A stretch of 64,000 nt of DNA. Origin: Candidatus Uhrbacteria bacterium. Lineage in GTDB: Bacteria > Patescibacteriota > Patescibacteriia > JACQRZ01. The notes beneath the pieces are model-generated. The model searched no databases. It saw only the letters and a list, made by a program, of their open reading frames with translations, and was not told the origin of the DNA. The translations under genes and the position numbers were made by a program. The stretch is from assembly GCA_016206155.1 (NCBI GenBank), contig JACQSC010000002.1:15473-79472 (forward strand), given 5' to 3'. This document shows, piece after piece, positions 96 to 45,166 of this stretch (position 1 is the first letter of the stretch; every line of letters starts with the position of its first letter).

Positions 96-1448
96 ATGAA
101 CACCAGCATCTTCAAAGCATACGACATTCGCGGTATTGTTCCATCAGAAATCAACGCGCAAACCGCGGTGCATATCGGCCGCGCGTTCGCAACCTTCCTT
201 CGGCGGGAAACCGGCAAGAAGCGGATTGCCATTGCGGTTGGACAGGACAATCGCGTCCACTCGCCTGAGTTATTTTCCGCGCTCGTTTCCGGCCTTGTTT
301 CCGCTGGTGCGGACGTTGTTGACATCGGCCTTGCGTCCACGCCATTTTTTTACTTCGCGGTTTCGCACCTTCGTCTCGATGGCGGAATCAACGTCACCGC
401 ATCGCACAATCCTCCTGAGTATAACGGTTTCAAATGCGTACGCAAAAACGCCGAACCAATCGGCGTTGAAACGGGCTTGCGTGAAATTCAAGCGCTGTTT
501 GAAAAAAGCAGCGCGCGCGTTAGTGTCCGGAACGTCATGGATGAATACATCCAAAAAAATCTCAAACTCGCGCCAGTCGGCGATTGGTCAGGGCTCCGCG
601 TCGCTATTGATACCGGCAACGGCGTCTCCGCGCTCATGATCAAAGATCTGATCGCCGCGACAGGGCTTGCGGTCATACCATTATATTTTGAACTCGACGG
701 CACGTTCCCCAATCACATGCCCAATCCACTCAAAGAAGAAAATATCGCCGCCTTAAAGAAAACCGTTGTCGACGAGAAGTGCTCATGTGGCATAGCGCTT
801 GACGCCGACGGTGACCGCTCAATTTTCATCAATGAAAAGGGAGACGTGGTTCCCTCGGATCTCTTGACGGCGCTTGTCGCCGGACTCTTGCTCAAAAAAA
901 ATCCCGGTGAAAAAATCTGCTATGACGCAACATCAAGCTGGACAACTCGCGAGGTCATCAAAGAGTGCGGAGGCGTCCCGATCATCTCGCGCGTAGGCCA
1001 TTCTTTTATCAAAGAAACAATGCGCAATGAACATATTCTGTTCGCCGGGGAGCGGAGCGGGCATTTCTATTTCCGCTTTAGCAACCTTGGCTATTTTGAA
1101 GCGCCGCTCCTTGTCATGATCGCGGTCCTCAACCACATGGCAGAGACCAACCAACCGCTTTCCACCATTATGGCGCCGTTGCAGCGCTATTTTGCAACCG
1201 GAGAAATAAATTTTGAAGTGCACGACAAAAGTGCGGCGATGAAAAAAGTTGAAGAGCGCTATGCTGATGCAAAAAGCGTTTCATATCTTGATGGCATCAC
1301 CGTGGAATATGACGATTGGTGGCTCAATCTTCGCCCATCAAACACCGAGCCGTTATTGCGGCTGAATCTCGAAGCGCGTACCGCTGAATTGCGCGACAGC
1401 AAACTCCGAGAGCTCACCGTGCTCATAACGAAGAATCAGGAATTATGA
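96..1448 (+). CDS. phosphoglucomutase/phosphomannomutase family protein (alpha-D-phosphohexomutase)
   Basis: Full-length ORF. N-terminal 'FKAYDIRG' and the active-site phosphoserine loop 'TASHNPPEYNGFK' are typical of PGM/PMM/GlmM enzymes. Confidence 0.85.
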   Translation: MNTSIFKAYDIRGIVPSEINAQTAVHIGRAFATFLRRETGKKRIAIAVGQDNRVHSPELFSALVSGLVSAGADVVDIGLASTPFFYFAVSHLRLDGGINVTASHNPPEYNGFKCVRKNAEPIGVETGLREIQALFEKSSARVSVRNVMDEYIQKNLKLAPVGDWSGLRVAIDTGNGVSALMIKDLIAATGLAVIPLYFELDGTFPNHMPNPLKEENIAALKKTVVDEKCSCGIALDADGDRSIFINEKGDVVPSDLLTALVAGLLLKKNPGEKICYDATSSWTTREVIKECGGVPIISRVGHSFIKETMRNEHILFAGERSGHFYFRFSNLGYFEAPLLVMIAVLNHMAETNQPLSTIMAPLQRYFATGEINFEVHDKSAAMKKVEERYADAKSVSYLDGITVEYDDWWLNLRPSNTEPLLRLNLEARTAELRDSKLRELTVLITKNQEL

Positions 1449-1597
1449 ATCAAGAATTAAGCAAGAAAATGCAATCATTTACTGATTTCAGAGCATGGCT
1501 AGAAGGTCATGTGTTTGTTCTCATAAAATTACGAATGGCTTAATCAAGGGCACAAAAACAATCATTCGTAATTCTTAATTCGTAATTCATAATTCTG
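1440..1597. mobile_element. MITE-like repeat, copy A: AT-rich heptamer-repeat termini around a ~110 bp core; carries a 32-codon ORF (1445..1543) overlapping the mutase stop as ATGA
   Basis: Termini 'gaattatgaatcaagaattaag' and 'attcgtaattcttaattcgtaattcataattc' are inverted heptamer arrays. The core reappears reverse-complemented at 3431..3674. Confidence 0.6.
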
Positions 1598-1598
1598 C

Positions 1599-2411
1599 AT
1601 GACCATCGGCGTATTCGATTCTGGTATCGGGGGACTCACGGTGTTAAAGCACCTAGTGCGTGTGTTGCCTGAATACGACATGCTCTACCTGGGCGATAAT
1701 GCGCGGGCGCCCTACGGTGACCGATCCGCGGATCGCATATATGAGTTCACTCAGCAAGCGGTTGCTCATCTTTTTGAAGAAGGGTGCGCGCTGGTTATCC
1801 TTGCGTGCAACACCGCCTCATCCGAAGCTCTGCGCCGACTGCAACAAGAGTTCCTGCCGTCACACTTTCCCGACCGGCGGATCTTGGGCATTCTTATACC
1901 CGCGGCGGAACTCATTGAAAAAAAATACGCGCAGAAGAACATTGGCATTATCGGAACGCGCGCAACCGTGCAATCAAACGCGTATCTTCGCGAGATTGAA
2001 AAACGCGGCATGGCGCAAAAAAAAGTTACTCAAATCCCGTGCCCCCTATTAGTCCCATTGATTGAAGAGGGGTGGCAGGATACACCGCCCGGCCGGCAGA
2101 TCCTAAAAAAATACCTCTACCCGCTCAAGCAAAAACAGGTTGATGTTTTGGTCCTTGGCTGCACGCACTACGCGCTCATCAAGGATCGCGTTGCCCGAAT
2201 TATGGGAAAGAAGGTCGCCGTCATAGATACCGGATCCGCGGCGGCCGCATCATTAAAAAAATATCTATCCTGTCATCCCGAAATTGAAAAAACTCTCTCA
2301 AAAAACAGCGCCGTCCGCCTACTCTCAACCGATACGTCCGAGCGCATTTGCAGCCTCGTTCAGCGTTATTGGGGTAGCGCGCTGCCAATAGAACAAATTA
2401 CCCTTGAGTAA
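1599..2411 (+). CDS. murI: glutamate racemase
   Basis: Motifs 'VFDSGIGGLTV', 'LACNTAS' and 'LGCTHY' are the two catalytic-Cys regions of MurI. Confidence 0.9.
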   Translation: MTIGVFDSGIGGLTVLKHLVRVLPEYDMLYLGDNARAPYGDRSADRIYEFTQQAVAHLFEEGCALVILACNTASSEALRRLQQEFLPSHFPDRRILGILIPAAELIEKKYAQKNIGIIGTRATVQSNAYLREIEKRGMAQKKVTQIPCPLLVPLIEEGWQDTPPGRQILKKYLYPLKQKQVDVLVLGCTHYALIKDRVARIMGKKVAVIDTGSAAAASLKKYLSCHPEIEKTLSKNSAVRLLSTDTSERICSLVQRYWGSALPIEQITLE

Positions 2412-2412
2412 T

Positions 2413-2440
2413 ATGTTCGACATCAGATGTCGAACATTTG
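2413..2440. terminator. bidirectional hairpin terminator between convergent murI and trpS
   Basis: Perfect 11 bp inverted repeat 'atgttcgacat cag atgtcgaacat' sitting between two convergent stop codons. Confidence 0.5.
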
Positions 2441-2443
2441 GTG

Positions 2444-3424
2444 TCACTCATAGAGACCGATGCGTCTTTTAATCATGATCATTTTTTTCTCAGCGTGCTT
2501 CTTCGCGCGCGATGCGCCATCGGCGAGAAGGGCGCGCAGATTATTCTCATCCCCTCGATACTGCCCATAGCGTTCCTGAACGGGTGCAAGAAACTCAATT
2601 AGGACTCTTGCAAGGCCATCCTTAAACTCTTTGTACCCTCCTTGGGCATACGCTTTTTCAATATCGGATATCGCTTGGCCAGAGAGCAGATGATAGATGG
2701 TCAAAAGATTGGCGAGCGCCGGTTTCTTCTTTGCGTCAAAGAGGATCTCGCGCCCCGAATCCGTTACGGCACGCTTGATTTTTTTCTTCACTAAGTCAGG
2801 CGTATCAGAAAGAGCGATATATCCATCGACCGATCCTGTCTTCTCCATTTTTTTAGCAGGGTTGTCTAGCGCCATAACGCGCGCGCCATGTTTCATGAGC
2901 ATGCTTTTAGGCACCGTGAACGTCTCGCCAAAACGCCCATTGAAGCGCCGCGCAAGCTCGCGCACAAGTTCAACGTGCTGTTTTTGGTCTTCGCCAACGG
3001 GTACGCCCTCAGTATCATAGAGAAGAATATCGGAAGCCATCAAGACGGGATAGTCAAACAAACCCATATTGATGTTGTCAGGGTTGCTCTTGCTCTTCTC
3101 TTTGAACTGGTGCATTGCTTTTAGCTCGGAAATTTTTGCAATGGTGTTCAGTATCCAGCCTAACTCCGCGTGCGCCGAAACGTGCGATTGCACAAAGAGC
3201 GTACTCTTCTTCGGGTCGAGACCAAGCGCGAGATACCATGCCGCCGCGTCAAGCGTGCGCCTCCGCAATTCGGAAGGGTCAATCGCTACGGTCAACGCGT
3301 GAAGATCGACAACGCAATAGATGCACTCATGCGCATCTTGCAGCGCTATCCATTGAGAGAGAGCGCCGATGTAATTGCCGAGATGCAGATCGCCGGATGG
3401 CTTGATGCCGGAAAAAATTCGCAT
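2444..3424 (-). CDS. trpS: tryptophan--tRNA ligase
   Basis: N-terminal 'GIKPSGDLHLGNYIGA' is the class I HIGH region. Size and overall layout fit TrpS. Confidence 0.9.
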   Translation of the reverse strand: MRIFSGIKPSGDLHLGNYIGALSQWIALQDAHECIYCVVDLHALTVAIDPSELRRRTLDAAAWYLALGLDPKKSTLFVQSHVSAHAELGWILNTIAKISELKAMHQFKEKSKSNPDNINMGLFDYPVLMASDILLYDTEGVPVGEDQKQHVELVRELARRFNGRFGETFTVPKSMLMKHGARVMALDNPAKKMEKTGSVDGYIALSDTPDLVKKKIKRAVTDSGREILFDAKKKPALANLLTIYHLLSGQAISDIEKAYAQGGYKEFKDGLARVLIEFLAPVQERYGQYRGDENNLRALLADGASRAKKHAEKKMIMIKRRIGLYE

Positions 3425-3430
3425 AGGTTG

Positions 3431-3674
3431 GAATTAAGAATCAAGAATTACGAATTAAGAATTACGAATGATTGACTTCGTGCCCTTGATTAACCATTCG
3501 TAATTTTATGAGAACAAACACATGACCTTCTAGCCATGCTCTAAGATCAGTAAACGATTGTATCTTATTCCTGCTTAATTCTTGATTCATAATTCTTAAT
3601 TCTTCATTCTTGAGATCAGTAAACGATTGTATCTTATTCCTGCTTAATTCTTGATTCATAATTCTTAATTCTTC
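3431..3674. mobile_element. MITE-like repeat, copy A', inverted relative to 1440..1597, with an internal ~65 bp tandem duplication (3545..3613 and 3614..3674)
   Basis: 'ccattcgtaattttatgagaacaaacacatgaccttctagccatgctc' is the exact reverse complement of the copy A core. The unit 'gatcagtaaacgattgtatcttattcctgcttaattcttgattcataattcttaattcttc' occurs twice in tandem. Confidence 0.6.
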
Positions 3675-3720
3675 GTACTATACAGAGTAGATAATAATAG
3701 AGCGCCAACGCCTCCTTAGA

Positions 3721-5613
3721 TTAAACCTTGATAATCACCGGCAATACCATCGGCCGTTTCTCAGTGCGTTTGAATAGAAGCAATCCGACATCATCGCGAA
3801 TACGGTTGCGCACCGGCGACCAATTCTCAACATCATTGCAGGTATATCCGTCAACAAGCTTGCGCACCATACCGCGCACTTCGGCGATCAAGCGCTCGGA
3901 TGTCTTAACATAGACGAATCCGCGAGAAATAATATCGGGAGATCCCACAAGCTTTCCGTCCTTGTCAACGGCGGCAATAACCACAACCATGCCATCTTGT
4001 GCCAACACCTTGCGCTCACGCAGGACAACGTGCTCAATATCGCCAACGCCCAACCCATCAACCATCACGTTGTCAACTTTAATTTTTTCAGGGCTGATGC
4101 GTGCCGTTCCCGTCTGATCAAATTCAATTATCGTTCCGATGCCGATAACAAAAAGCGATCGGTCGTCCCACCCCATGGTTCGTGCGAGCTCGGCGTGGTG
4201 CACAAGCATATATCGCTCGCCGTGGATCGGCATAAAGTATCGCGGACGAACCAATCCAAGCATCAACTTCAGCTCCTCGCGATATCCGTGGCCCGAGGTG
4301 TGCACGTCAAACATCTTGTTATAAATCACGTTTGCGCCAAGGGTGTACAACTCGTTCATGAGATTGGTCACCGCACGCTCATTGCCCGGAATCGGCGAAG
4401 ATGAAAGGATGATCGTATCCTTGGGCTGAATCTTCACGTGCTTATGTTCGCCTTTTGACATCCGCACCAACGATGATGTCTCCTGTCCCTGGCTTCCGGT
4501 AGACAAAATAACGACGCGCTCATCGGGAACGTTCCTCAGTTGGTCAATTTTTATCAGCGTTCCGCGCGGCATTTTCAAATATCCCAAGTTTGCGGCGGTG
4601 GTGAGCACTTTTTCCATACTCATACCAGACACTGCCACTTTACGATTCAGATCAACGGCGGCATTGATAACTTGCTGAATGCGACTGATGAGGGAGGAAA
4701 ACGTGGAGACGATAATACGGCCCGGGGCCTTTGCGAGAAGAGATTCAAGGTTTGCTTGAATGTCTTTCTCAGACTGACAATATCCCGGCACCTCCGCGCG
4801 CGTGCTATCAGAACACAACAACAACACTCCCTCTTCGCCGAGCCTGGCAATTTTCCCAAACTCTGTCGGACGCTGATCCTGCGGAGTGTGGTCAAACTTC
4901 CAGTCACCGGTATGGATAATGGTGCCAACCGGCGTGCGCACCGCAACGCCAACGCTATCGGGAATATTGTGGTTGACACGGAAAAAGTTGAGGCGAAAAA
5001 CGCCCAGCTGCAATGAGTCATCAGGATGAACCTCGATACAGCGCACATGGCGCGTCAAATTAAACTCTTCCAGTCGGTCACGAAGCATGCCAAGCGTCAA
5101 ACGGGTGCCATAGACCGGCGGAGACCCAATATCCTTAATAAGATAGGGAATGGCCCCCATGTGGTCGAGATGGCCATGCGTGATGATAATACCTTTCAAT
5201 TTTCCCTTGTGCTGTTTGAGATACGACGTATCGGGAATGACAAAGTCAATGCCTGGCATGTTCTCGGTGGGGAACATGACACCCATATCAATCACGACAG
5301 CGTCATTGCCATATTCAATGACCATCATATTACGACCAAACTCCCCGATCCCCCCAAGCGGAATCACGCGCAATTTGGCGTGGTCCAAGCGCGGCGCGCC
5401 TCTGCGACCGAGGCCTGATTGCCGTGGCACCCGGGTGCGCGAAACCACTTTTGGCCGCCCATATCCCCGCAATCGCGAGGACGCGTTTGATAATGATGCG
5501 CTTCTCGTCGCTACGGCGAGAGAGGCCGCTGGTTCAGAAACATGTTGTGCTTCCATGAAATAATGCTTTACAGCGTTATAAATAATACAGCTTTGATAGT
5601 AATCGACCATCAA
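3721..5613 (-). CDS. rnj: ribonuclease J (metallo-beta-lactamase/beta-CASP) with an Arg-rich N-terminal extension
   Basis: 'IPLGGIGEFGRNMMVIEYG', 'ITHGHLDHMGAIPYL' and a beta-CASP region. The true start is uncertain; MEAQ at 5556 or upstream are both possible. Confidence 0.8.
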   Translation of the reverse strand: MMVDYYQSCIIYNAVKHYFMEAQHVSEPAASLAVATRSASLSNASSRLRGYGRPKVVSRTRVPRQSGLGRRGAPRLDHAKLRVIPLGGIGEFGRNMMVIEYGNDAVVIDMGVMFPTENMPGIDFVIPDTSYLKQHKGKLKGIIITHGHLDHMGAIPYLIKDIGSPPVYGTRLTLGMLRDRLEEFNLTRHVRCIEVHPDDSLQLGVFRLNFFRVNHNIPDSVGVAVRTPVGTIIHTGDWKFDHTPQDQRPTEFGKIARLGEEGVLLLCSDSTRAEVPGYCQSEKDIQANLESLLAKAPGRIIVSTFSSLISRIQQVINAAVDLNRKVAVSGMSMEKVLTTAANLGYLKMPRGTLIKIDQLRNVPDERVVILSTGSQGQETSSLVRMSKGEHKHVKIQPKDTIILSSSPIPGNERAVTNLMNELYTLGANVIYNKMFDVHTSGHGYREELKLMLGLVRPRYFMPIHGERYMLVHHAELARTMGWDDRSLFVIGIGTIIEFDQTGTARISPEKIKVDNVMVDGLGVGDIEHVVLRERKVLAQDGMVVVIAAVDKDGKLVGSPDIISRGFVYVKTSERLIAEVRGMVRKLVDGYTCNDVENWSPVRNRIRDDVGLLLFKRTEKRPMVLPVIIKV

Positions 5614-7503: not shown

Positions 7504-7511
7504 ACCCTGAT

Positions 7512-7545
7512 CGTAACTCGTAACTCGTAACTCGTAACTCGTACG
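7512..7545. repeat. tandem heptamer (cgtaact) x4.5, immediately upstream of the substrate-binding-protein start
   Basis: Read directly: 'cgtaactcgtaactcgtaactcgtaactcgtacg'. Confidence 0.9.
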
Positions 7546-10311: not shown

Positions 10312-13131
10312 ATGCAGCAACAATCGATTGTCATTCGCGGATGCCGCGTCAATAATTTAAAAAACGTTTCGCTTGATATTCCCCACAACGCGCTTGTTGT
10401 CTTCACGGGATTGTCGGGATCGGGAAAATCGTCTTTGGCGTTTGATACAATTTATGCCGAGGGACAGCGCCGATTCATGGAGAGCCTCTCAAGTTTTACC
10501 AAGCACTTTCTCGAAAACATCGACAAGCCTGACGTCGAGCGCATCGAGGGGCTTCCCCCCACGATCGCGATTGATCAACGCACCACATCCTCTTCGCCGC
10601 GCTCAACAGTCGGAACCGCTACCGAAATGTACGACGCCCTTCGCCTCCTCTTTGCTCGCGCGGGGACGCCACATTGTCCGCTCTGCGGCATCGAAGTTTC
10701 AGCGCGGACACGCCAACACATCATCCATGACGTGGGACAGCGCATTAAAAAGGGGGGTGCCGCTATCACCATTGCCGCCCCGCTTAAAAAAGGAGAGCAT
10801 ATCGATATCGATCGCATGCTTGAGGAGCTGGAAAAATTATCAATTCACGCCCTCCGTATTGACGGGCAATCATACACGCTTGCCAATCTCATTCGAAATC
10901 CTCGTGCAATGGACGGCGTCCATACGATCGATGTTATTGTCGATCGATTCGAGCATCCCGCCGAGGATGCGCGTGATTCTGCGCGTATTGTGCGATCCGT
11001 TCAGCGTGCGCTCGAATTTGGCGATGGAACACTGTCCATCTGGGAAGAAAAAATAAAACAAGGGACCACTATTACCGAACGGCTTACCTGCACCCGCTGC
11101 GCCTATACCGTTGAGCATCTCGAGCCGCGCCATTTTTCTTTTAATAACCCCACCGGGGCGTGCTCCCCGTGCGCCGGTCTTGGTGTCTTGCACCAGTTCG
11201 ATACCGAGCTCCTGATTCCCAATCAAAAGCTTACTGTTGCGCAAGGTGCAATTCATCCTCTTTCAAAATTTTATGCAAACACCCATGGGCTCATGCAGTC
11301 CATCAATGAGTTGCTTGTGGCGCTTGGCACATCAAACAGCGCCCCTTTGGAGGCATATACAAAAAAACAGCGCGACGGCCTTCTGTATGGCTTGAAAAAA
11401 GAATCATCCTTTGGCGGAGTAATCCCGTATCTGCAGACGAAATACGAGCAAAGCGACTCCGAGTATATTCGCGCTGAGTTGGAGACATATATGCGAATCT
11501 CAACCTGCTCTTCGTGCCATGGCAAGCGTCTAAAAAAAGACGCCCTTGCCGTCACCGTTGCAGGACATTCGATTGATCAAATTGTCGCCATGCCAATCGA
11601 ACATCTTCTGAAGCTTTTTCGCTCCTGTTCACTGAATCAGTCCCAGCGCGCAATTACCGAGCCGATTGTCAACGAAATACTCAACCGCGCACAGGCGCTC
11701 ACCCGCGTAGGTCTTTCCTACCTTGTTCTGGACCGCAGTATGCCGACGCTCTCAGGCGGAGAAGCGCAGCGCGTCAAACTCGCAGCACATGTCAGCACGT
11801 CACTTGTCGGCGTTGTCTACTGTCTGGACGAACCATCTGTGGGACTCCATCCGCGCGACACCGACCATCTTATTGCAACACTAAAAGAACTGCAGGGACT
11901 CGGTAACACCGTTATTGTTGTTGAACATGACAAACAGATTATTCTCGCCGCAGACAGCATCGTCGACATTGGACCTGGCGCCGGAAAGCAAGGGGGCACG
12001 ATTGTTGCCCAAGGATCCGCGCAGGACATCGTGAAGACAAAAGCCTCGCTGACCGGACGATATCTTTCTGGCGCAAAAGCAATCGCGCTTCCTCGCAAAA
12101 AGCGCATTCGCACAGACGCGTGTATCGATCTTGTCGGTGTCCGTGAGCATAACTTGAAAAATATCTCCGTCCGCATACCAACCGGAGCGCTGGTTGCAAT
12201 TACCGGCGTGTCTGGATCGGGAAAATCAAGCCTGGTGATCGACGTGTTAAGCAAAGCCCTCATGAAGCGATTCTACCGCAGCAAGGATATTCCGGGCGCG
12301 CATGACGACATCCGCGGCCTGGAATATATTGACAAGGCAATCGTTATCGATCAGGCGCCGATTGGGCGGACGCCGCGCAGCAATCCCATCACCTATACGA
12401 ATATCTTCACCCCCGTCCGCGAGCTATTCACCAATCTTCCCGAATCAAAAATCAGAGGGTTTACACCCGGCCATTTTAGTTTTAATGTAAAGGGGGGGCG
12501 GTGTGAAACGTGCCAGGGCGAAGGAATGATGCGTATCGATATGCGCTTCCTTTCGGATGTCTATGTCGAATGTGGCGACTGCGGAGGAAGGCGCTACACG
12601 CCCGATGCCCTTGAGGTTCATTTTGAGGGACTCTCCATTGCCGACGTGCTTGACTTGACTGTCAGCGAAGCGTGCGAGGTTTTCAAAAAGATTTCCCCGA
12701 TCTATGATAAGCTAAAGGTGCTTGCCGATGTTGGTCTTGGGTACATTCGTCTTGGGCAACCGGCTCCCACATTATCCGGCGGTGAGGCACAGCGCATCAA
12801 ACTTGCCGCAGAGCTTTCTCGGCGATCAACTGGACGAACCCTGACCATCCTCGATGAACCAACCACCGGACTCCACTTTGAAGATATCCAACAACTTCTC
12901 GGGGTGCTCGATGCGCTTGTCGCAAAAGGGAATACCGTCCTGATGATCGAACACAACCTTGACGTAATCCGTTGCGCGGATTGGATCATTGATTTGGGAC
13001 CTGAGGGTGGAGAAGCGGGCGGATATGTCGTCGCGCAAGGAAGCCCTTCTGATGTTGCCAACAATCCGCAGAGTATCACCGGCCGCTATTTGAAAAAGGC
13101 GTTGATTGAGCAAGGAGCTATGAAGAATTAA
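10312..13131 (+). CDS. uvrA: excinuclease ABC subunit A
   Basis: 939 aa with two ABC ATPase modules ('[14 protein letters not shown]', '[11 protein letters not shown]'), zinc-finger Cys clusters and 'LSGGEAQR' signatures. Confidence 0.95.
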
Positions 13132-13204
13132 GAATCAAGAATTAAGAATTAAGCAAAGGGATATTTGTATTATTCGTAATTCTTGATTCGTAATTCTTAA
13201 TTCC
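13124..13204. repeat. heptamer-array hairpin (short MITE-like element) between uvrA and leuS
   Basis: 'gaattaagaatcaagaattaagaattaag' and, 22 nt later, its inverse 'cgtaattcttgattcgtaattcttaattc'. Same heptamer family as the 1440 and 3431 elements. Confidence 0.7.
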
Positions 13205-13223
13205 TCTCCGGAGGAAGGAGTGC

Positions 13224-20059: not shown

Positions 20060-20269
20060 AAAAAATTTCAAATTTATAATTTCAGATTTATCAAAATACA
20101 AGGTGTCAATTCGAGGAAATGGGGTCTGGCTCAATTTCCTGAAAGGAATTTGTGCCTGACCTCATTTCATTTCTATCTGAATCGAAGAGAAGAAACAGTC
20201 TTGTTCGTTTTCTTGCGATGCTTTTTCTGCGCTATTTTTTTCTTTTTGTACATATTAATTTTTATTTAA

Positions 20270-20351: not shown

Positions 20352-21350
20352 TTAAAATTTTTCAAATACTACTTTCTTTCGCGGGAGAAATAACTCACTT
20401 TTCATAGATGAATACATATATGTATAGAGACGCCTTGAATCATGAATAGAAAAACGTAAGTTAAAACCATCTCCTTCGGATATGCTTCCGCCCGCTACTA
20501 CTCTGTATTTTTTAAGGACCAAAAAGATTTGTTCGAGAATCTTTTTCCCGCCTGACGTGAATCCGGAAGCAAGTACTCGATTTTTCTTTCTACGTCCTTT
20601 CCTAAAATACTCATAGATAACGACATGACCACATCCATCAAAATAGCCTCGTAAAAAATGGCAGAAAAATTTATGGGGGACGGCAGGAAGCTGAACAATC
20701 AGGCTTTTGCGAACGATCATACCGAATGCGCTGAGATTCTTAAAAAGTTTTTTACTACCAATTTGCAAACGGTAACAGTCTTTCGCCCTTCTTGTTCTGT
20801 CGCGTTCGTGCGGTTTCACGCCGATCGAGTGATTGGAACCAAGGGCATCTCTAATTTTCTCAATGATTGCCCGATCGCATGAGGTAAATTCAATATATTT
20901 GCTTCCTCGCGGATTGACTGTCAAATTTCCGTCTGCGACAAAAAACCCGAGTACATACGCCATCTCCTCTGACCATGTTTCAAAGAACGATTGATTTACC
21001 TTCCATGGAAATTCCCTTTTAACCTTCGGCTTCGCGCGCGGCCCCTTACGTGGCCCAGTATTAAGGAGATTCAAGTTCGTAAACCGAGTACACGACTGGC
21101 TTGGAATATGAAGCTTATGAAACCATCTGGTTACGGTGCCTCGCGGCAGACCAACTTTTTTCCCAATCTCACTGTGTTTGAGATTTTCATCCCAGTGCCA
21201 GTAATAAAAAAGTTGATGAACTGGCGTTCTCCACTTTTCCTCAATGGCGGTCAGTCGAGGTGAGTGCACGATTTGCTGCATGGGAATCCCAAAAAAGATA
21301 GATACATTATACCACCTTTTTTTCTTTCCGCAATACCCATACCAATCCAA
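20352..21350 (-). CDS. free-standing LAGLIDADG homing endonuclease with two motifs and an N-terminal HTH region
   Basis: Motif 1 'YVLGFFVADGNL' and motif 2 'FLRGYFDGCGHV'. The gene lies immediately upstream of tRNA-Asp. Confidence 0.7.
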   Translation of the reverse strand: MDWYGYCGKKKRWYNVSIFFGIPMQQIVHSPRLTAIEEKWRTPVHQLFYYWHWDENLKHSEIGKKVGLPRGTVTRWFHKLHIPSQSCTRFTNLNLLNTGPRKGPRAKPKVKREFPWKVNQSFFETWSEEMAYVLGFFVADGNLTVNPRGSKYIEFTSCDRAIIEKIRDALGSNHSIGVKPHERDRTRRAKDCYRLQIGSKKLFKNLSAFGMIVRKSLIVQLPAVPHKFFCHFLRGYFDGCGHVVIYEYFRKGRRKKNRVLASGFTSGGKKILEQIFLVLKKYRVVAGGSISEGDGFNLRFSIHDSRRLYTYMYSSMKSELFLPRKKVVFEKF

Positions 21351-22098
21351 GGGTGCCGACGATCATAAACCCAAGGGAAATCCATTGGGGGGCACGAAGA
21401 CCGAACGCTAAGGGAACGATATCAATCCTTAAAAACTCAATACCAAAACGTCCAAGAGAATAAAGGATGAGATAGAGAAAAAAAACCGTACCATTTGTCA
21501 TCCCGGCGGAGGCCGGGATCCAGCCACCCCCCCTTCTCCACACGAGCCATCCCAAAAAAAGAAAGAGCAAAACATCAAAAATAGACTCGTACAAAAATGT
21601 CGGATGAAATGTCGCAAATGATTCATATCCCGGCAACCGCTTCTCCGTATCGATGGTTATTCCCCATGGCACATCAGTCGGAAGACCATACGCCTCCTGG
21701 TTGACATAATTTCCCCACCGCCCGATAGCCTGCCCCAACGCAACACCGGGCGCGAGCACATCAAGAAGTGAAAGAAATGATATATGCGTTTTCCGGCAAT
21801 ACCCATACACGCCAAGTATCCCTCCAAGTAGCCCTCCATGCCAGACCCATCCACCATTCCAGACTGCAATATTTTCTTGGGGGTGAGTGCCAAAATAATC
21901 AAGGTGGTACACAACAAACAATACACGTGCCCCAATCACCGCGGGGATAAGCGCCCATAAAAGTACGCTGTCAATATGGTCAGTGCGAATAGTCGCAGAT
22001 CTTCGCGCAAAAAATAACGCCGCGCAATACGCGACAAGAAACCCCAGTGAAATGAGAAGTCCGTATCCTGAAATGCCAACGATACGCACCCCCTCCAT
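21307..22098 (-). CDS. lgt: prolipoprotein diacylglyceryl transferase
   Basis: 'GRWGNYVNQEAYG' signature and multiple TM helices. Carries a 29 bp palindromic insertion (see the repeat at 21497). Confidence 0.85.
   Translation of the reverse strand: MEGVRIVGISGYGLLISLGFLVAYCAALFFARRSATIRTDHIDSVLLWALIPAVIGARVLFVVYHLDYFGTHPQENIAVWNGGWVWHGGLLGGILGVYGYCRKTHISFLSLLDVLAPGVALGQAIGRWGNYVNQEAYGLPTDVPWGITIDTEKRLPGYESFATFHPTFLYESIFDVLLFLFLGWLVWRRGGGWIPASAGMTNGTVFFLYLILYSLGRFGIEFLRIDIVPLAFGLRAPQWISLGFMIVGTLGLVWVLRKEKKVV
21497..21525. repeat. 29 bp GC-rich palindromic repeat 'gtcatcccggcggaggccgggatccagcc' inserted in-frame in lgt
   Basis: Same element at 42914..42942 inside rfbD and a longer copy at 25142..25206. 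Encodes 'WIPASAGMT' in Lgt. Confidence 0.8.
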
Positions 22099-23598: not shown

Positions 23599-24975
23599 TT
23601 ACTTGAGAAGCCAGGCGGGGATGACCGTGATATCGGATGAAAGCGCGTGCGACATTCGCGAGATAACGGTCATTGGCGCGTTGTGCTTCTTGGCCACACG
23701 AGTCAGAAATGGTATATCGCGCATATCAATATGCTCGCGCCATTTCACTTCGATGTGCTGAAACGCGCGCGTATCGCGCATATCATTTGAGCAAAGAAAA
23801 TCAAACTCATGTGAGCGGACGCGATAGAAAGAGCAAAAGCGAAACTGTCTTCGCAGAAGAGAGAACACATAGTTCTCAACCATAAAACCCGTTCGCTGGC
23901 GAGAGATTTCAGAATCACGCCAATCCGTAAACAAGGAGAGAAAATTACTACTGCCGAGATAGAGTTTTTTCAGAAGACGGCGCGATTTGCGAAATGATTT
24001 GCTATAGTTATGGAGCGGGTACACTAAAAATGATTGTTCAAAATAGGAAAGATACTTTTTTACCGTTGCCGCATCGATCCCAATTTCGCGGGCGAGATTG
24101 GTGGGCTCTGAAAGCAAACCTGTTTCGGAAAGAATAACCGCAAAGAGAAACTTCAGCTCATCAACCTTCTCAACGCCAAAAATTCGCGGGATGTCATACT
24201 CCACTGTTTTTTTAAAAATTGATTCCTCAAGATATTTTTGCTTTGCTCCCGTCTCTTCGGTGCCAATGAGCTCGGGAAATTGCCCGAAACGAAGAAAATC
24301 ATCAAAGTGCGCAATGAGATCGTTTCCATACTGCGCAGTAATTCTCTCGTGTCGAAGAGCATGCGCGGCGCTATCGCCGATTGTTACCGCGCCACCCTGA
24401 TACGCATCAACAAGAATGGTGCTCACTCTCTTTAATGACAGATATTCCTCAAAGCTCAATACCGGTAAAAAAAACTCCTCGATACGTCCCGCGAGAGTTT
24501 CCGTTGTTTTTTTCTGCAAAAAAAGCGACGAAGACCCGCTGATAATAAATTTTATGTTCGGTTCCGTATCGTAATAACGCTTGAGAATGTGATGCCACTG
24601 TTTCGCGTATTGAATCTCATCCAAAAAAATAGTGAGCCGCGTATCTTTTGGCGCCTTATGTTCAAGATAAGCATCAATATAATCGGCAAGGGTTACGTCT
24701 TTAGGAAAAAGCACCTCATCAAACGAGAGAAAAAGGATTGCCTCAGCATCTACGTTTGAAAGTAGATTCTTGATGAGCTGTTTGAGCAGAACGGTTTTAC
24801 CAACACGGCGCAAGCCAACCAAGGATATTATCTGTCGTTTTTTGAGCGCGGGAACAAGAGAAAAATAGAGAGTCCGCTGATATTCAATATGTTCAATATC
24901 AAAAAAGAATTCATCGGGATTCTCCCAGTGCCTGTTCTGTCGAAAAATTTCCTTTAAAATAAAGTCTTTTTTCAT
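23599..24975 (-). CDS. AAA+ ATPase of the DUF4143 type (COG1373-like)
   Basis: Walker A 'VGLRRVGKT', Walker B 'IFLDEIQ', about 458 aa. Architecture of the archaeal/CPR-type 'AAA plus DUF4143' ATPases. Confidence 0.65.
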   Translation of the reverse strand: MKKDFILKEIFRQNRHWENPDEFFFDIEHIEYQRTLYFSLVPALKKRQIISLVGLRRVGKTVLLKQLIKNLLSNVDAEAILFLSFDEVLFPKDVTLADYIDAYLEHKAPKDTRLTIFLDEIQYAKQWHHILKRYYDTEPNIKFIISGSSSLFLQKKTTETLAGRIEEFFLPVLSFEEYLSLKRVSTILVDAYQGGAVTIGDSAAHALRHERITAQYGNDLIAHFDDFLRFGQFPELIGTEETGAKQKYLEESIFKKTVEYDIPRIFGVEKVDELKFLFAVILSETGLLSEPTNLAREIGIDAATVKKYLSYFEQSFLVYPLHNYSKSFRKSRRLLKKLYLGSSNFLSLFTDWRDSEISRQRTGFMVENYVFSLLRRQFRFCSFYRVRSHEFDFLCSNDMRDTRAFQHIEVKWREHIDMRDIPFLTRVAKKHNAPMTVISRMSHALSSDITVIPAWLLK

Positions 24976-25141
24976 GTAATTACATTTATAATGACCTCAA
25001 TCATCATAAATGTAACATTTATGATTGCTTATGTCAATAGAGATGTCATAATAATGCCCCATTTATCCACATTGACAATAAAAATGGTGTCTGGTTTAAT
25101 TTCTGAGGAAATTATACCTGCCACCTGACAGCATTATTGCT

Positions 25142-25206
25142 GTCATCCCGGTCCGACTGTGCCAAAGCGCTTCGTCGCGACGGCGAGCGGAGGCCGGGAT
25201 CCAGAC
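25142..25206. repeat. long intergenic copy of the palindromic repeat (gtcatcccgg...ccgggatccagac) with a 36 bp internal insert
   Basis: The ends match the 29 bp elements inside lgt and rfbD. The internal segment 'tccgactgtgccaaagcgcttcgtcgcgacggcgagcg' is absent from the short copies. Confidence 0.75.
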
Positions 25207-25372
25207 TCAACTATGTTGATTTCAAAAAATACGACAACTTGGTCAAGCTACGCATCATCTACGCGAGGAAATCCTCAAGAGTAGGTTTGTGCGTGCTTTG
25301 GAAAATTCGAAACATTCAGAAACCTGCCCTTGAGGCAGGTCTTTTCCTTATTCCTTGAGAAAGGAGTGAACA

Positions 25373-25519
25373 GTGACACTTTGGAACGGCGTTAAAGTTC
25401 TGGCATCAGAGTTCTACGGGTATGAGTTCCAGCTCGCGGAATACGGAATCAAGAAAATAGGTCCAATCACAGAGAGGGAAATCCTCAGCGCGTGGAAAGC
25501 GACACGCGAGACAACATAA
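25373..25519 (+). CDS. small hypothetical protein (48 aa, GTG start), not in the supplied ORF track
   Basis: RBS 'aaggagtgaaca' then GTG. Preceded by the hairpin 'cctgcccttgaggcaggtctttt'. Translation: VTLWNGVKVLASEFYGYEFQLAEYGIKKIGPITEREILSAWKATRETT. Confidence 0.3.
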   Translation: MTLWNGVKVLASEFYGYEFQLAEYGIKKIGPITEREILSAWKATRETT

Positions 25520-26229
25520 CACTCATGACTATCACACCTATCAAAACACGAATTTTTCTGGAAAACGAAAATCTCGAAAAATTTATTGATGAATACATTC
25601 CTGCCGTCCAAGAGAATACCATCATCGTCATCACTTCAAAAATCGTCGCTCTCTCTGAAGGTCGCACATACGATGACGATAGCGAGGAAGCGAGAGAAAC
25701 GCTTATTCGGCAAGAAAGCGAATGGATGTTAAAAACAAAATACGTATGGCTCACTCTCAAAGACGGCATGCTTGCGGCATCCGCTGGTATCGATGCATCA
25801 AACGCGAATGGCAAACTCATCCTCTTGCCAAAAAATAGTTTTCAGACAGCAAAACAAATACGCGACGCGTTGCGGAAAAAATACTCCCTCACCAACCTTG
25901 GCGTTCTTATTACCGATAGCCGCCTCCTCCCCTTGCGCGCGGGCGCGCTCGCGTACGCCATTGGGTATGCGGGATTTCGCGGTGTTCGCGACAATCGCGT
26001 AAAGCCCGACATCTTTGGCAGAGAATTATTATATTCCCAAACAGATGTTGCCGACGGGCTTGCGTCCTCCGCTGTTATTTGCATGGGCGAGGGCGCGGAA
26101 CAAATTCCGCTTTGCATCATCACCGACCCGCCGGTGGAGTGGACCGATGATCCGATTGATCCAAACGAACTACGCATTCCACCCGAAGACGACCTCTACC
26201 GCCCATTCTTTGAAAATTTACCTGATTGA
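25492..26229 (+). CDS. CofE-family protein (F420-0:gamma-glutamyl ligase-like)
   Basis: 'IVITSKIVALSEGR', an exact 'AGIDASN', 'VLITDS' and 'DIFGRELLYSQTDVADGLASSAVICMGEG' align with the CofE family. The likely start is MTITP at 25525. Confidence 0.75.
   Translation: MESDTRDNITLMTITPIKTRIFLENENLEKFIDEYIPAVQENTIIVITSKIVALSEGRTYDDDSEEARETLIRQESEWMLKTKYVWLTLKDGMLAASAGIDASNANGKLILLPKNSFQTAKQIRDALRKKYSLTNLGVLITDSRLLPLRAGALAYAIGYAGFRGVRDNRVKPDIFGRELLYSQTDVADGLASSAVICMGEGAEQIPLCIITDPPVEWTDDPIDPNELRIPPEDDLYRPFFENLPD
26185..26229. repeat. R1: the 3' terminal ~45 bp of the cofE-like gene, first of three direct copies
   Basis: 'cccgaagacgacctctaccgcccattctttgaaaatttacc'. Recurs at 26607..26655 and 27289..27335 at about 80% identity. 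Confidence 0.8.
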
Positions 26230-26253
26230 TTGAATGTACTTTGAAGGATGTCC

Positions 26254-26606: not shown

Positions 26607-26655
26607 CCCTGAAGGCGACCTCTACCGTCAGTTTTTTGAGAATATTCCCCTATGA
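26607..26655. repeat. R2: copy of the cofE-like 3' end repeat
   Basis: 'cctgaaggcgacctctaccgtcagttttttgagaatattcc', followed by the hairpin 'attcccctatgagggaat'. Confidence 0.8.
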
Positions 26656-26934
26656 GGGAATGCGCTGAAGAACCATATCATAGACACGCGAACGATGTGC
26701 AATGATAAGAACCCTCACTTCATCATTTGCAGCAATTCGATAAATAACTCTCCAATCACCTACTCTAAGCTTCCAATATCCTGCCAGCCATTTTCGAAGC
26801 GGCTTGCCATACTGATCTGGAGATGTAGTAAGACGGGTCTCGATCGCAGTTTTTACGCGCACTCGGATATCAGTAGGCAGGGATGGGATGTCGTCATTCT
26901 GCACACGTTCGTGCAACAAAACGTTATAGGCCAT
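26650..26934 (-). CDS. type II toxin, RelE/ParE family
   Basis: 'WKLRVGDWRVIYRIAANDEVRVLIIAHRSRVY' is the hallmark RelE/ParE C-terminal region. Start placed at MAYNV. Confidence 0.75.
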   Translation of the reverse strand: MAYNVLLHERVQNDDIPSLPTDIRVRVKTAIETRLTTSPDQYGKPLRKWLAGYWKLRVGDWRVIYRIAANDEVRVLIIAHRSRVYDMVLQRIPS

Positions 26935-27288: not shown

Positions 27289-27335
27289 TCTCGAAGATGG
27301 CCTCTACCGCCCGTTTTTTGAGAATATTCCGCAAC
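27289..27335. repeat. R3: third copy of the cofE-like 3' end repeat
   Basis: 'tcgaagatggcctctaccgcccgttttttgagaatattcc', followed by the strong hairpin 'cgacacaaaacag...ctgttttgtgttgtcg' at 27343..27388. Confidence 0.8.
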
Positions 27336-27396
27336 GACACAAAACAGTCCAATAATCTGAGCTGTTTTGTGTTGTCGCTTGAAGTTTAACAGTACA

Positions 27397-33236: not shown

Positions 33237-33271
33237 AGGAACGTCAACAGTGCCGAATCAGGAATTATGAA

Positions 33272-34291
33272 TTATGAATAAGGGGTTTTCTGATTCCTGA
33301 TTCCGAGTTCTTCGCAGCGCTGTTCAAATCTCTCACTGATCTCTTGCCGCCGATCCGCGATGTGAAACTTCAGCACCGTGTCGGAAACGACAACTCCCGT
33401 CCCGACATTGGCGCGGTTGCGGATGGCGATGGGAAGAATGCGAAGCTGCAAAGATCGAAGTATTCGCTCAATCGCTCCGCCAAAACACCGGCTGAATATC
33501 TCCCCCGCATGCTTTATCCCATGCATGATAGGCGAAAGCGTGATACGACGCCGCGGAATCGGTTCACACGGAAATACGTTTGGAAGAATGTCGGTAATCC
33601 ACGCGTTTTTCAAAAAGAATTGATCGTACACACCATCATCATAAAGCGGAACGCACCACGCGACCCAGGATGCAAGATACACGTCAGGATCCCATCCATC
33701 CAGCTGGAGCGACGAGAGATCAAGAGCGCAATCTGAAATGAAAAAACTCAAGCAAAACGTATCGCGCTCATGGCCTTTTCTCGGACGGAGATTCAGTATA
33801 TGGGCAAGACTGGTACAAAAAAATCGTACCGTCCACACATGGCGTGCGCTGACAACAATAAAAAGATCAATATCGCTTTCATCGCGCGCGACATTCAGGC
33901 CCAGTGTGTTGCATACGCAAACCATGCGCACAAACGGTATGTGCGCAAGCAGAGAAACGAACCGCTTTGCCCGTATGTATTTTCGATACGAATAGATCAT
34001 ACGCCCTTGCCGACGCGCGCGCAAAAGATCGCGCCCAACAAGATAAAAGAGTCCCTCCCCCGATGAAATACGCGCGGCGAGAAACGGAGAAGATGCAAGA
34101 CAGTCGCGAATCATGAGTACGGTATAGGGCTCGCCCCTCTCTGTTGAGATAAGAAATTTCCAAATCTCGAAATCGGTTAGAGGGTATTCAAAGATATCAA
34201 AAAAAATAAGGGTTCGAAGTATTGCGCATTCAAAATGTGAGGGTGTTTCCGTTGACATAAGGCCTGTCATATTGTATCCTAATAAGCGCAT
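33272..34291 (-). CDS. hypothetical protein with a nucleotidyltransferase-like motif
   Basis: 'LGLNVARDESDIDLFIVV' resembles the pol-beta superfamily NTase motif. Otherwise unassigned. Confidence 0.3.
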   Translation of the reverse strand: MRLLGYNMTGLMSTETPSHFECAILRTLIFFDIFEYPLTDFEIWKFLISTERGEPYTVLMIRDCLASSPFLAARISSGEGLFYLVGRDLLRARRQGRMIYSYRKYIRAKRFVSLLAHIPFVRMVCVCNTLGLNVARDESDIDLFIVVSARHVWTVRFFCTSLAHILNLRPRKGHERDTFCLSFFISDCALDLSSLQLDGWDPDVYLASWVAWCVPLYDDGVYDQFFLKNAWITDILPNVFPCEPIPRRRITLSPIMHGIKHAGEIFSRCFGGAIERILRSLQLRILPIAIRNRANVGTGVVVSDTVLKFHIADRRQEISERFEQRCEELGIRNQKTPYS

Positions 34292-41400: not shown

Positions 41401-41413
41401 TGAGCTGTATATT

Positions 41414-41583
41414 GAGAGTGGTGAAAAATATCACGTATAAGTTTCTTCCGGCTCATTTCCAGCCAATGTCGCCCCAAAAATGCGCTGAACTCGTCGCCCG
41501 GCCACGGCCGGGCTTCTCATTCATCATCATTTTTGGAACGAAATTGTCATGGAACTGACCGGGAATCTATTTTTCACCACTCT
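41414..41583. mobile_element. 170 bp MITE bounded by perfect 17 bp terminal inverted repeats (gagagtggtgaaaaata / tatttttcaccactctc)
   Basis: TIRs at 41414..41430 and 41567..41583. Internal GC hairpin 'gcccggccacggccgggc'. A partial second copy lies at 58478..58550. Confidence 0.75.
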
Positions 41584-42043: not shown

Positions 42044-43000
42044 TCAATGGGTCTGCTGTACCAGAAACGAAATGCACTCGCTCAAACTTGCGTCCCAGTC
42101 GTGGATCGCCACGCCGAACGTATGTTGAATTTTTTTTGTTGAAAGGACGCTATATGCCGGACGTGTGACCTTGGTTGGATATTCCGATGCGGGAATGGGC
42201 TTGATCTCGCATGACAACCCTGCCAAGTCACGGATCTTCTGCGCGAACTCAAACCAGGTGACCTCCCCGTCGTTTGCGTAATGGTATATACCGAAAGGAA
42301 ATGGGGTCTGGCTCTGTGGGGAAAACGGTGTCTGGTTCGTTTTCGCTTGCAAAAATGCACCTGACACCATTTTCCATGTGCCTGACTCCATTTTCGTGAT
42401 CATCGCAATGAGCGCGCCGGCAAGATCGCGGGCGTAGGTCGGACTCCCATACTGGTCTGCGACAACGGGTAATGACTCCTGCTCCTCGCAAAGACGCACT
42501 ATCGTTTTAACAAAATTACTGCCGTACGACGAATAGAGCCAAGAGGTGCGGACAATAAAACTTTTAGGGCATACTTCTTGAACCGCCAACTCCCCTTCAT
42601 ATTTTGATCGTGCGTATGCTCCCAGCGGATGCGGCTCATCATCTTCGGTGTATGGCACGGTTTTTTTCCCATCGAACACAAAGTCGGTCGAGATATGGAA
42701 AAGAATCGTGCTATTCTTTGCGCATGAGCGTGCGATGTTCTCAGCGCCCAGTACATTGACTGCGTGCGCAAGCGATTGTTCATCCTCCGCTTTTTCAACG
42801 TTCGTGTATGCGGCAGTGTTGATGCAATAATCTGGTTTGTGTTCATCAAAAAATTTCAGCACGGCATCCGCGTCAGTAATATCAAGCTCGTCGCGATCAA
42901 CAAAAGTAAAAATGTCATCCCGGCGCAGGCCGGGATCCAGACAAATTTTTTTTAGCTCTGACCCGAGCTGTCCATTTGCGCCGGTGACAAGGAGTCTCAT
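42044..43000 (-). CDS. rfbD: dTDP-4-dehydrorhamnose reductase
   Basis: 'MRLLVTGANGQLGSEL' Rossmann start and RmlD layout. Contains the in-frame palindromic insertion encoding 'LDPGLRRDDI'. Confidence 0.85.
   Translation of the reverse strand: MRLLVTGANGQLGSELKKICLDPGLRRDDIFTFVDRDELDITDADAVLKFFDEHKPDYCINTAAYTNVEKAEDEQSLAHAVNVLGAENIARSCAKNSTILFHISTDFVFDGKKTVPYTEDDEPHPLGAYARSKYEGELAVQEVCPKSFIVRTSWLYSSYGSNFVKTIVRLCEEQESLPVVADQYGSPTYARDLAGALIAMITKMESGTWKMVSGAFLQAKTNQTPFSPQSQTPFPFGIYHYANDGEVTWFEFAQKIRDLAGLSCEIKPIPASEYPTKVTRPAYSVLSTKKIQHTFGVAIHDWDASLSECISFLVQQTH
42914..42942. repeat. 29 bp GC-rich palindromic repeat 'gtcatcccggcgcaggccgggatccagac' inserted in-frame in rfbD
   Basis: Same family as 21497..21525 and 25142..25206. 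Confidence 0.8.
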
Positions 43001-44080: not shown

Positions 44081-45166
44081 TCAAAACGATGTACAAGACG
44101 CATACATAGGTAACACTTTTGATAGTTCAAGAGGTGGTTTGTAGTTCAGCGATTGATGAGGGCGTCTGAAGTTGTACTCAATCAGCCATTCAGTCAGATC
44201 TCTGTTAAAGATCAATGGGTCAGGATCGAACCCCTTCATCTCAATGAACTCTTCCTGCAGAGTTCTGTTGAATCGTTCATTGTTCGGATTGTCTTTTGGC
44301 GTGTGTACTCTGCTGTAGTATTGTTCAATGCCGAGTTCCAGGCACGCGGCCTTAAAGTATTTCTCAAACTCTGTTCCATTGTCGTGGCCGACTCGTGGAA
44401 TCTGTCCGTCAAGGAGGTAGTGGAGGCGCAGTAGAAAATCCTCACCATTCTTTGAGCTCTTGGACGTGTACATTCGCGCAAAGGCCACCTTGCCATACTT
44501 GTCGACAGCCGTGAAGATATATCGTTTCAATCCATGCCAGTATATCACGATCGTATCAAGGCAGATAATGTAGCCGGCTCTTTTCTGCCAGGGCAGGATG
44601 TTCTTCACAAGATCAATGGTCTTTTTCTTTTTCTGTGCTTTTCTTCGTTTTGCTTGTATTCTCTTGTTTTTTGAGGGTTTGTAGTAGAGCTTGAAGTCTG
44701 TAATAACGCACTGGATTTTCCATGAAGAAATTGTCTCTCCATAGGTTTGCTCATAGATTTCTTTGAGCTTCATTTTGCCATAGCGCATGTTGGACTTTCT
44801 GGGGGCTATGATACGTTCTAAAACGTCTGGGGCGATTGTACGGCCTCGTTTTTTCCTTGGAGAGCGTGATTTGTCCTCAAGGAGGTGGAGAGTGTAGAGA
44901 TTTCGCTCGTCAAAGAGTTTGAACCATTTGTAGAAGGTTTTTCCCGGGATGCCAAAGTGCCGGCAGGCTAATGAGGCGTTTCCCTCGTGTTCGTAGTACC
45001 AGATGATCCAGTCAAGGCGCTGTTTTGCTTTCTTTGAAACCTTGAGGATGTCTGCGACGCGTCTCCAGCGCTCATATTTGTCCAAAAGAGTATGGCGGTA
45101 GTAAGGGAAGTGCTTGAAAAGATCTTCAAGGCGCAATTTCTCTGGGGTATGGTATGCTGTTTGCAT
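44081..45166 (-). CDS. DDE transposase with an integrase (rve) core and an N-terminal HTH
   Basis: 'TAVDKYGKVAFARMYTSKSSKNG...GHDNGTEFEKY...YSRVHTPKDNPNNERFNRTLQEEF' is a DDE rve core. Single ORF of about 360 aa with an HTH N-terminus, as in IS481 members. Confidence 0.8.
   Translation of the reverse strand: MQTAYHTPEKLRLEDLFKHFPYYRHTLLDKYERWRRVADILKVSKKAKQRLDWIIWYYEHEGNASLACRHFGIPGKTFYKWFKLFDERNLYTLHLLEDKSRSPRKKRGRTIAPDVLERIIAPRKSNMRYGKMKLKEIYEQTYGETISSWKIQCVITDFKLYYKPSKNKRIQAKRRKAQKKKKTIDLVKNILPWQKRAGYIICLDTIVIYWHGLKRYIFTAVDKYGKVAFARMYTSKSSKNGEDFLLRLHYLLDGQIPRVGHDNGTEFEKYFKAACLELGIEQYYSRVHTPKDNPNNERFNRTLQEEFIEMKGFDPDPLIFNRDLTEWLIEYNFRRPHQSLNYKPPLELSKVLPMYASCTSF

Follow-up and report, generated by a model that had tools for sequence, protein, structure and literature searches.

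Probable CGTC-tagged palindromic repeats in a Candidatus Uhrbacteria genome, one of them carrying a nested 36-nt module

Introduction

The small bacterial palindromes closest to the repeats analyzed here are the CGTC-tagged REPs, defined by Di Nocera, De Gregorio and Rocco (2013, BMC Genomics 14:522; PMC3733652). Elements of family 1 (CGTC-1) are built from a CGTC tag, which is often TGTC (many members have TGTC or CCTC), an 8-bp stem with A-T then T-A in its first two positions, a 4-nt loop, and a short unpaired tail that is mostly CCA. The same work treats Neisseria dRS3 and Rickettsia RPE-6 as CGTC-1, and lets RPE-4 correspond to CGTC-4. The small genomes of Rickettsia are thus covered, intragenic copies have been reported, no dedicated transposase is known, and the hosts listed belong to five phyla, no candidate phylum among them (PMC3733652).

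Here, we describe a set of such hairpins in a 64-kb stretch of DNA from a Candidatus Uhrbacteria genome, the whole of which we refer to as the window. Its RmlD and Lgt proteins are 100% identical to NCBI proteins of a Candidatus Uhrbacteria bacterium, a member of the Patescibacteria/Parcubacteria group. CGTC-tagged REPs are widespread, and three of the results presented here bear on what spreads them.

Results

Three Copies of a Hairpin Repeat in the Window

The original prediction held that the window contains three copies of a hairpin-forming element, two short ones within genes and one of 65 bp between genes, and all three were found where it had placed them. In the bounds drawn originally, copy 1 is tTGTCATCCCGGCGGAGGCCGGGATCCAGcc (21497-21525) and copy 3 is aTGTCATCCCGGCGCAGGCCGGGATCCAGACa (42914-42942), while the long copy (25142-25206) consists of GTCATCCCGG, 36 nt and CGGAGGCCGGGATCCAGAC, its last position including a trailing AC beyond the composite copy listed in Table 1. 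A pattern search with GTCATCCCGG-N(3-51)-CCGGGATCCA returned exactly three matches in the window, and the same two-end pattern had no match in 100 dinucleotide-preserving shuffles. The three hairpin repeats are confirmed as real and are not expected by chance. When folded, copies 1 and 3 each give eight perfect stem pairs capped by a 4-nt loop; the long copy forms a single extended imperfect hairpin. The unit can be written as T-GTC, ATCCCGGC, a 4-nt loop, GCCGGGAT and CCAG. All three copies are single and lie on the plus strand. REPs are typically extragenic for the most part and often arranged as head-to-head dimers, so a 64-kb stretch with just three copies, two of them intragenic, and no dimers is atypical.

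Table 1. Repeat units of the window, the nested module, and the genes that house the intragenic copies
Feature	Coordinates	Strand	Description
REP copy 1, 27-nt unit	21497-21523	+	GTC + ATCCCGGC + GGAG + GCCGGGAT + CCAG, preceded by T (tag TGTC)
Composite intergenic copy	25142-25204	+	REP left part 25142-25151, REP right part 25188-25204, module between
Module M, 36 nt	25152-25187	+	TCCGACTGTGCCAAAGCGCTTCGTCGCGACGGCGAG, nested in the REP of the long copy
REP copy 3, 27-nt unit	42914-42940	+	loop GCAG, flanked by T and ACA
lgt, prolipoprotein diacylglyceryl transferase	21307-22098	-	REP in variable loop between transmembrane segments
rmlD/rfbD, dTDP-4-dehydrorhamnose reductase	42044-43000	-	REP in variable loop after GxxGxxG helix

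A further hairpin, at 41496-41513 (cGTC GCCCGGC CACG GCCGGGC), was considered as a fourth copy and rejected, having neither the AT stem base nor the CCA tail. It is positioned between rpsO and the NYN/pnp genes.

The Repeats Match CGTC-1

As for the class of the repeats, each part of the unit could be compared with the published architecture. All three window copies, and 11 of the 12 Uhrbacteria copies, have the tag TGTC ahead of the stem. The stem, ATCCCGGC/GCCGGGAT, has eight perfect pairs, and its AT pairs are invariant in 12/12 copies. Copies 1 and 3 have 4-nt loops, GGAG and GCAG respectively, and the long copy acquires a loop of this length only once its 36-nt module is removed. The stem is followed by CCAG in all three window copies. 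Since tag, stem, loop and tail all match CGTC-1, we assign the window repeats to this family. That they are CGTC-tagged REPs of family CGTC-1, in its TGTC variant, in a Candidatus Uhrbacteria genome is likely, and is overall the best explanation of what we see. The original prediction had recognized REP/RPE-like miniature palindromic elements, a view that is supported by our results, the repeats being common to this genome and its relatives. It had also taken the structured family to be undescribed, and this must be revised because its architecture is that of CGTC-1, in a superfamily that already takes in Rickettsia RPE-6 and RPE-4 (PMC3733652). The part that appears new is the host lineage, Patescibacteria/CPR, for which a literature search combining Patescibacteria and REPs found no report.

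The Same Ends Occur in Many Phyla and Recur in Related Uhrbacteria

We scanned one genome per species for the 21 specified end bases separated by a gap of 3-61 nt. The same ends were present in at least 120 genome stretches from many phyla, and 157 matches were located within the stretches listed. Among the matches listed are isolates of Sphingomonas, Dyella, Luteimonas, Rhodanobacter, Marinicauda, Methylobacterium and Desulfatibacillum, a Rickettsia symbiont and Rickettsiaceae/Rickettsiales MAGs, and MAGs of many phyla that include eight CPR loci (36-54% G+C). The base before GTC lies outside the search pattern; of the 116 short hits among the matches listed, 78 have C there, 34 have T, and 4 have G or A. 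As this unconstrained base is mostly C or T, the hits are independently marked as YGTC-tagged. The inner parts of the matches listed form three groups. The first has 4-nt loops (GAAG, GAAA, GCAG and others), the second has 5-nt loops (CTTGA) with G-C or A-T as the closing pair, and the third has longer inner hairpins whose sequences are unrelated.

A finding of three copies only, with none in relatives, would have spoken for chance similarity in the terms of the original prediction; what we found in related Uhrbacteria is four to five copies per 21 kb. One locus, L123, has five copies in 20.8 kb with three stem variants, and another, L130, has four in 20.7 kb; eight of these nine copies are intergenic. 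Across the syntenic Uhrbacteria loci, the self-complementary stems are ATCCCGGC, ATCCCCGC, ATTCCCGC, ATCCTCGC, ATCCCCGA and ATCCCGGG. Dimers occur in these relatives, as an inverted pair in L123 (6444/6515) and as an overlapping dimer in the lgt gene of L125. In the syntenic region, 11 of the 12 copies share one orientation. A replication-linked strand bias was considered and rejected, since orientation bears no relation to local GC skew in 94 unrelated loci (49 negative vs 45 positive), so that common ancestry best accounts for the local bias.

In one of the relatives (L126), the rfbC-rfbD spacer contains an 80-nt palindrome (3966-4046) with tags GTCATCCCGA...TCGGGATGAC at both ends, which is a symmetric double-tagged form of the repeat.

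At the Lgt Site, Constraint Falls on the Hairpin and Not on the Encoded Amino Acids

Read on the minus strand, copy 1 contributes WIPASAGMT to Lgt and copy 3 contributes LDPGLRRDD to RmlD/RfbD, the latter in another frame of the DNA. Both insert segments correspond to gapped, variable loops in comparison with solved structures. Of the six frames of the 27-mer, five are open and one contains a single stop codon, and its 27 nt make up nine codons; the unit can thus persist in frame in tolerant protein loops.

The Lgt site offers a series of states across species, and such a series at one site is new. The window has CTGGATCCCGGCCTCCGCCGGGATGAC, from which L123 and L127 differ by one loop base, with the frame reading LDPGLRRDD where the window reads WIPASAGMT. 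A change in one arm produces a mismatch in L128, and both arms are changed, with pairing restored, in L129. The site is occupied by a 50-nt long form in L124 and by the overlapping dimer in L125, and it is empty in L130. Two frames at one site, a one-arm intermediate and a compensated stem together place the constraint on the nucleic-acid hairpin, not on the encoded peptide. A structure count over 12 copies gives a stem that is 99% paired, with four of the eight pairs changed on both sides, although the paired percentage is inflated because these copies come mostly from a filter that demands a stem, the orthologous Lgt-site series alone being free of this bias. None of 500 shuffles reaches these values, and slid registers collapse.

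The unit is identical at 26 of its 27 nt between the window and L123 or L127, and the lgt genes share 68-72% nucleotide identity. Near-identical copies in diverged species could reflect recent independent insertion or gene conversion, and not purifying selection. Most close Lgt orthologs have an insert in this loop; several orthologs are without it (L130, P0131 and P0135-P0141). In a crude Lgt tree, carriers and non-carriers are interleaved, which fits either an old insertion followed by losses and decay or repeated insertion into one permissive loop. The rfbD insert is found in two species, most RfbD orthologs having no LDPGL. In L126, the 27-nt unit in rfbD has another 21 nt behind it, with a second CGGGATGAC at their end. 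The window is without precisely this 21-nt stretch, which is what a deletion between 9-nt direct repeats would remove. For the annotation of CPR genomes, this means that LDPGLRRDD and WIPASAGMT are repeat-derived inserts, not motifs. A full-text literature search for repeat-derived peptide strings found nothing.

Next to lgt, between this gene and a tRNA-Asp, there is a free-standing LAGLIDADG-type ORF (20352-21350), which as an ORF runs 44 nt into the 3' end of lgt. L123 has this ORF in the corresponding position, and L125 and L130 do not have it. In other Uhrbacteria, RfbD contains further repeat-like inserts (RHSERSE...ARNDG), located in the same two loops as the inserts of the window protein, the second of which is described below.

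The Long Copy Is a Composite

Without its module, the long copy reads GTCATCCCGGCGGAGGCCGGGATCCAG, which is exactly the 27-mer of copy 1. The long copy, which the original prediction took for a possible master element, is therefore a composite, i.e., an ordinary unit of the copy-1 type carrying a second, unrelated 36-nt palindromic module that recurs in unrelated contexts. A 36-nt module nested in a REP is new. It has a small hairpin of its own (CGCC/UGCC-AAA-GCG-CUUCGU-CGC-GAC-GGCG).

Neither the rest of the window nor the 128 compared loci contain the module. Its central 22-mer matches 25 metagenome contigs, or 23 places after de-duplication, with 46-70% G+C, and at least 34 of the 36 positions are identical in the window and the 25 contigs that share this 22-mer. 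One of these contigs is from Verrucomicrobiota, as judged from an 86% identical CTP synthase. Conservation among the contigs falls sharply outside TCCGACTACGCCAAAGCGCTTCGTCGCGACGGCGAG, that is, at the same 36-nt bounds as in the window. The flanks in the contigs are mostly other, unrelated palindromes. In one family of host palindromes, the module sits before the loop AAGCCTA in some cases and after it in others, its orientation differing between the two, and its 3' end abuts CGGCG each time. Some copies lie within long ORFs with PrmC, OGG or PMT_2 domains. Searches of viral contigs, plasmids and Rfam gave no match to the module, and a full-text literature search for its sequence found nothing.

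An independent Logan contig from the same population (L001) has, in 3340 nt, a single difference from the window, a T to C change at 25160. It falls within the module, where it converts a G-T pair to G-C and strengthens the module stem. This contig ends inside the long copy, its positions 1-50 corresponding to 25141-25190 of the window.

One reading, which we put forward as a tentative possibility, is that the module is a previously undescribed ultra-small mobile hairpin, inserting without obvious duplication into palindromic repeats in either orientation. Its targets may be loops or loop-stem junctions of palindromes, usually just 5' of YGGCG. If the module is mobile, it would rank among the smallest insertion units known, CGTC REPs and similar repeats would be its landing sites, and the CPR genomes of ~1 Mb that carry both would be the smallest gene sets in which to seek the mobilizing enzymes.

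Presence and Absence at the Intergenic Site

An AAA_14/DUF4143 gene and an F420-ligase-like gene flank the 516-bp spacer that holds the long copy. Comparison with relatives divides this spacer into a conserved TTGACA box, an insertion zone, and a conserved leader of ~140 nt ending in a terminator-like hairpin. In the insertion zone, the window (long form) and L130 (short form with stem ATCCTCGC) each have a REP, and L123 and L125 have none. A palindrome of a second kind is shared by the window and L123 and missing from L125 and L130. All four combinations thus exist, which implies at least one independent gain or precise loss. This four-combination pattern is the best indirect evidence for mobility. 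The filled (window, L130) and empty (L123, L125) sites are too diverged for exact junctions to be read, and no target-site duplication is visible at the three window copies. As for transcription signals, a scan of 24900-25600 called no intrinsic terminator at the long copy, its sole plus-strand call being a different hairpin, at 25322-25340. The T-runs near copies 1 and 3 belong to conserved codons or to the antisense strand.

The ~140-nt conserved non-coding stretch downstream (25213-25352), which ends in the terminator-like hairpin 25322-25346, is common to three other Uhrbacteria (3-4 sequences) and has no match in Rfam. In these relatives, it lies upstream of an operon of 232-aa, DHFR and F420-ligase genes, of which the window is without the first two.

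A second family of small palindromes (AAATGGnGTCTGG ... CCTGACnCCATTT) has copies at 20116-20165, 25081-25130 and 42297-42395. One copy is beside rpsT, and another is 12 nt upstream of the long REP. In rfbD, a nested pair lies in frame, encodes SGTWKMVSGAFLQAKTNQTPFSPQSQTPFP, and is missing from most orthologs.

Other Features of the Window

The 55 nt that end the F420-ligase-like gene (encoding ...DLYRPFFENLPD) occur three times, once in the gene itself and twice more downstream of it (26182-26236, 26608-26662 and 27290-27344). These repeats bracket two toxin-antitoxin cassettes, one with NTP_transf_2 and the other with ParE and an antitoxin, and in relatives toxin-antitoxin genes are likewise found at the 3' end of the F420-ligase-like gene. 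This arrangement suggests site-specific cassette insertion that regenerates the end of the gene.

AT-rich heptad-like repeats (AAGAATT, TAATTCT) occur at 1427-1600, 3421-3680, 7506-7540, 13108-13206 and 33244-33286. Some are arranged as long inverted repeats, with 43-nt arms 6 nt apart (13115-13206) or arms that flank ~2 kb (1427-3680). A different inverted-repeat pair, at 41409-41489 and 58476-58555 (complementarity of 88% over 48 nt and of 92% over 25 nt), encloses 17 kb with the rfb genes, an integrase and two tRNAs.

At 51900-54452, the RuvB gene is interrupted by an intein with a LAGLIDADG domain (850-aa ORF). A large serine recombinase gene (59791-61233) abuts a tRNA-Glu, and an rve-type integrase gene (44081-45166) is 1.1 kb from rfbC/rfbD. 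It is possible that these last two loci are integrated elements.

Discussion

What we observe is a discrete 27-nt hairpin, its presence or absence at particular sites, the upkeep of the hairpin, its tolerance in coding loops, and the nesting of palindromes. We would interpret the units as non-autonomous selfish DNA, gained and lost as discrete hairpins. They would probably propagate via a single-stranded DNA hairpin intermediate, with the enzyme supplied in trans, and copies would survive only where they are harmless, in intergenic DNA, at gene 3' ends and in surface loops. A role of the transcribed hairpin, if there is one, would be secondary. No movement event was observed, and the presence/absence pattern, among species whose proteins are 60-70% identical, could instead stem from loss or from repeated insertion into permissive loops. 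A Pfam scan of 40 window ORFs, with 22 smaller or obvious ones set aside, detected no Y1/HUH transposase (Y1_Tnp). The window does contain the rve integrase and the serine recombinase, neither of them beside a copy; the recombinase nearest to a copy is the rve integrase, 1.1 kb from copy 3. Very small genomes (Patescibacteria, 36-54% G+C) carry CGTC REPs whose ends are identical to those in Proteobacteria, so that a small gene set could encode the mobilizing activity, or be exploited as such.

The hairpins might alternatively be selected cis-acting RNA elements, i.e., terminators, stabilizers of mRNA 3' ends or RNase targets, that have spread by virtue of their function. All four L130 copies are just downstream of genes or between operon genes, with the tag first in the mRNA sense, REPs are generally transcribed and mostly located 3' of genes according to the literature, and the hairpin is kept through compensatory changes. 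We nevertheless find this account unlikely, because two of the three window copies are in coding sequence and are transcribed in the sense opposite to that of the L130 copies. Moreover, the long copy has no called T-run terminator and sits between the TTGACA box and the rest of the conserved leader, a poor place for a stabilizer or a terminator. Rfam, too, offers no matching family, since only tRNAs reached the gathering score in the window and nothing overlapped the repeats at E values up to 10.

Another possibility is that the repeats serve mainly as landing pads at which IS110/IS1111-type elements or phages recombine or integrate, a role described for Neisseria dRS3 and for REPs that insertion sequences target. 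The dRS3 repeat is a target for the integration of filamentous phage. REPs are reported as IS targets (PMC1525189), and in Coxiella an IS1111 lies within a REP. The long copy has itself received an insertion, module M, and two recombinase genes are at hand in the window. Neither of these adjoins a copy, however, with 1.1 kb as the closest approach, and the role of a target accounts neither for the multiplication of the repeat nor for ends conserved across phyla, which makes this explanation quite improbable.

That the intragenic copies are functional, conserved protein inserts in Lgt and RmlD, their palindrome being incidental, would agree with the occupation of the same Lgt loop in most close orthologs and of rfbD in two species. 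It is very hard to reconcile with one Lgt loop that translates the same DNA in two frames, WIPASAGMT in the window and LDPGLRRDD in relatives. In addition, an identical 27-mer is found in unrelated proteins and in intergenic DNA, the insert is missing from the orthologs named above (L130, P0131, P0135-P0141), and the segment aligns to gapped loops of solved structures. Lastly, a chance resemblance among short GC-rich hairpins, or an artefact of assembly or binning, has the low copy number in the window as its sole argument and is of negligible probability in the face of the empty shuffles, the same sequence in an independent Logan assembly from another run, and orthologous-site copies in six other assemblies.

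Taking the repeats as CGTC-1 REPs that probably spread as selfish hairpins, we can compare them with the systems described so far. Like MITEs, including nested ones, they are small, non-coding, palindromic and dispersed, and they are able to nest. At 27 nt, they are nonetheless far smaller than MITEs, and they have no terminal inverted repeats distinct from the stem. With the GTAG REPs and REPINs they share the form of short tagged hairpins that often occur as inverted pairs, can lie in other palindromes, and are thought to move as single-stranded hairpins. They differ in their tag, which is YGTC (TGTC in the window) and not GTAG, in that the window copies are all single and on one strand, and in that no RAYT (Y1 transposase), the enzyme that mobilizes GTAG REPs, was found among the 40 scanned window ORFs.

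The Neisseria dRS3 repeat has the consensus ATTCCC-N8-GGGAAT, and one variant of L123, GTCATTCCCGCGAAGGCGGGAATCCAG, fits it. The window intergenic region, a mosaic of several small palindromes, also resembles the mosaic intergenic arrays of Neisseria. The differences are that the window stem reads ATCCCGGC and not ATTCCCGC, that large arrays are missing, and that no associated phage or IS110-type integrase was seen in the window. As for the RPEs, classic RPE-1 is ~100-150 bp long and specific to Rickettsia. The resemblance to the RPEs of Ogata and colleagues lies in palindromic repeats that are in frame within coding genes of a small genome and tolerated in surface loops. RPEs are recognized as in-frame insertions absent from orthologs, and here the lgt and rfbD frames are intact and several orthologs are without the insert. 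The window repeats are linked to RPE-6 solely through the equation of RPE-6 with CGTC-1 (PMC3733652).

The closest system is CGTC-1 itself. The likeness extends from the unpaired 5' CGTC/TGTC tag, the 8-bp AT-first stem, the 4-nt loop and the unpaired CCA tail to the coexistence of loop and stem variants in one genome, the occasional intragenic copies and dimers, and a life without a known dedicated transposase. The differences are a host, Patescibacteria/CPR, that is outside the five reported phyla, and a window in which copies are sparse, two of the three are intragenic, and one carries a nested foreign module.
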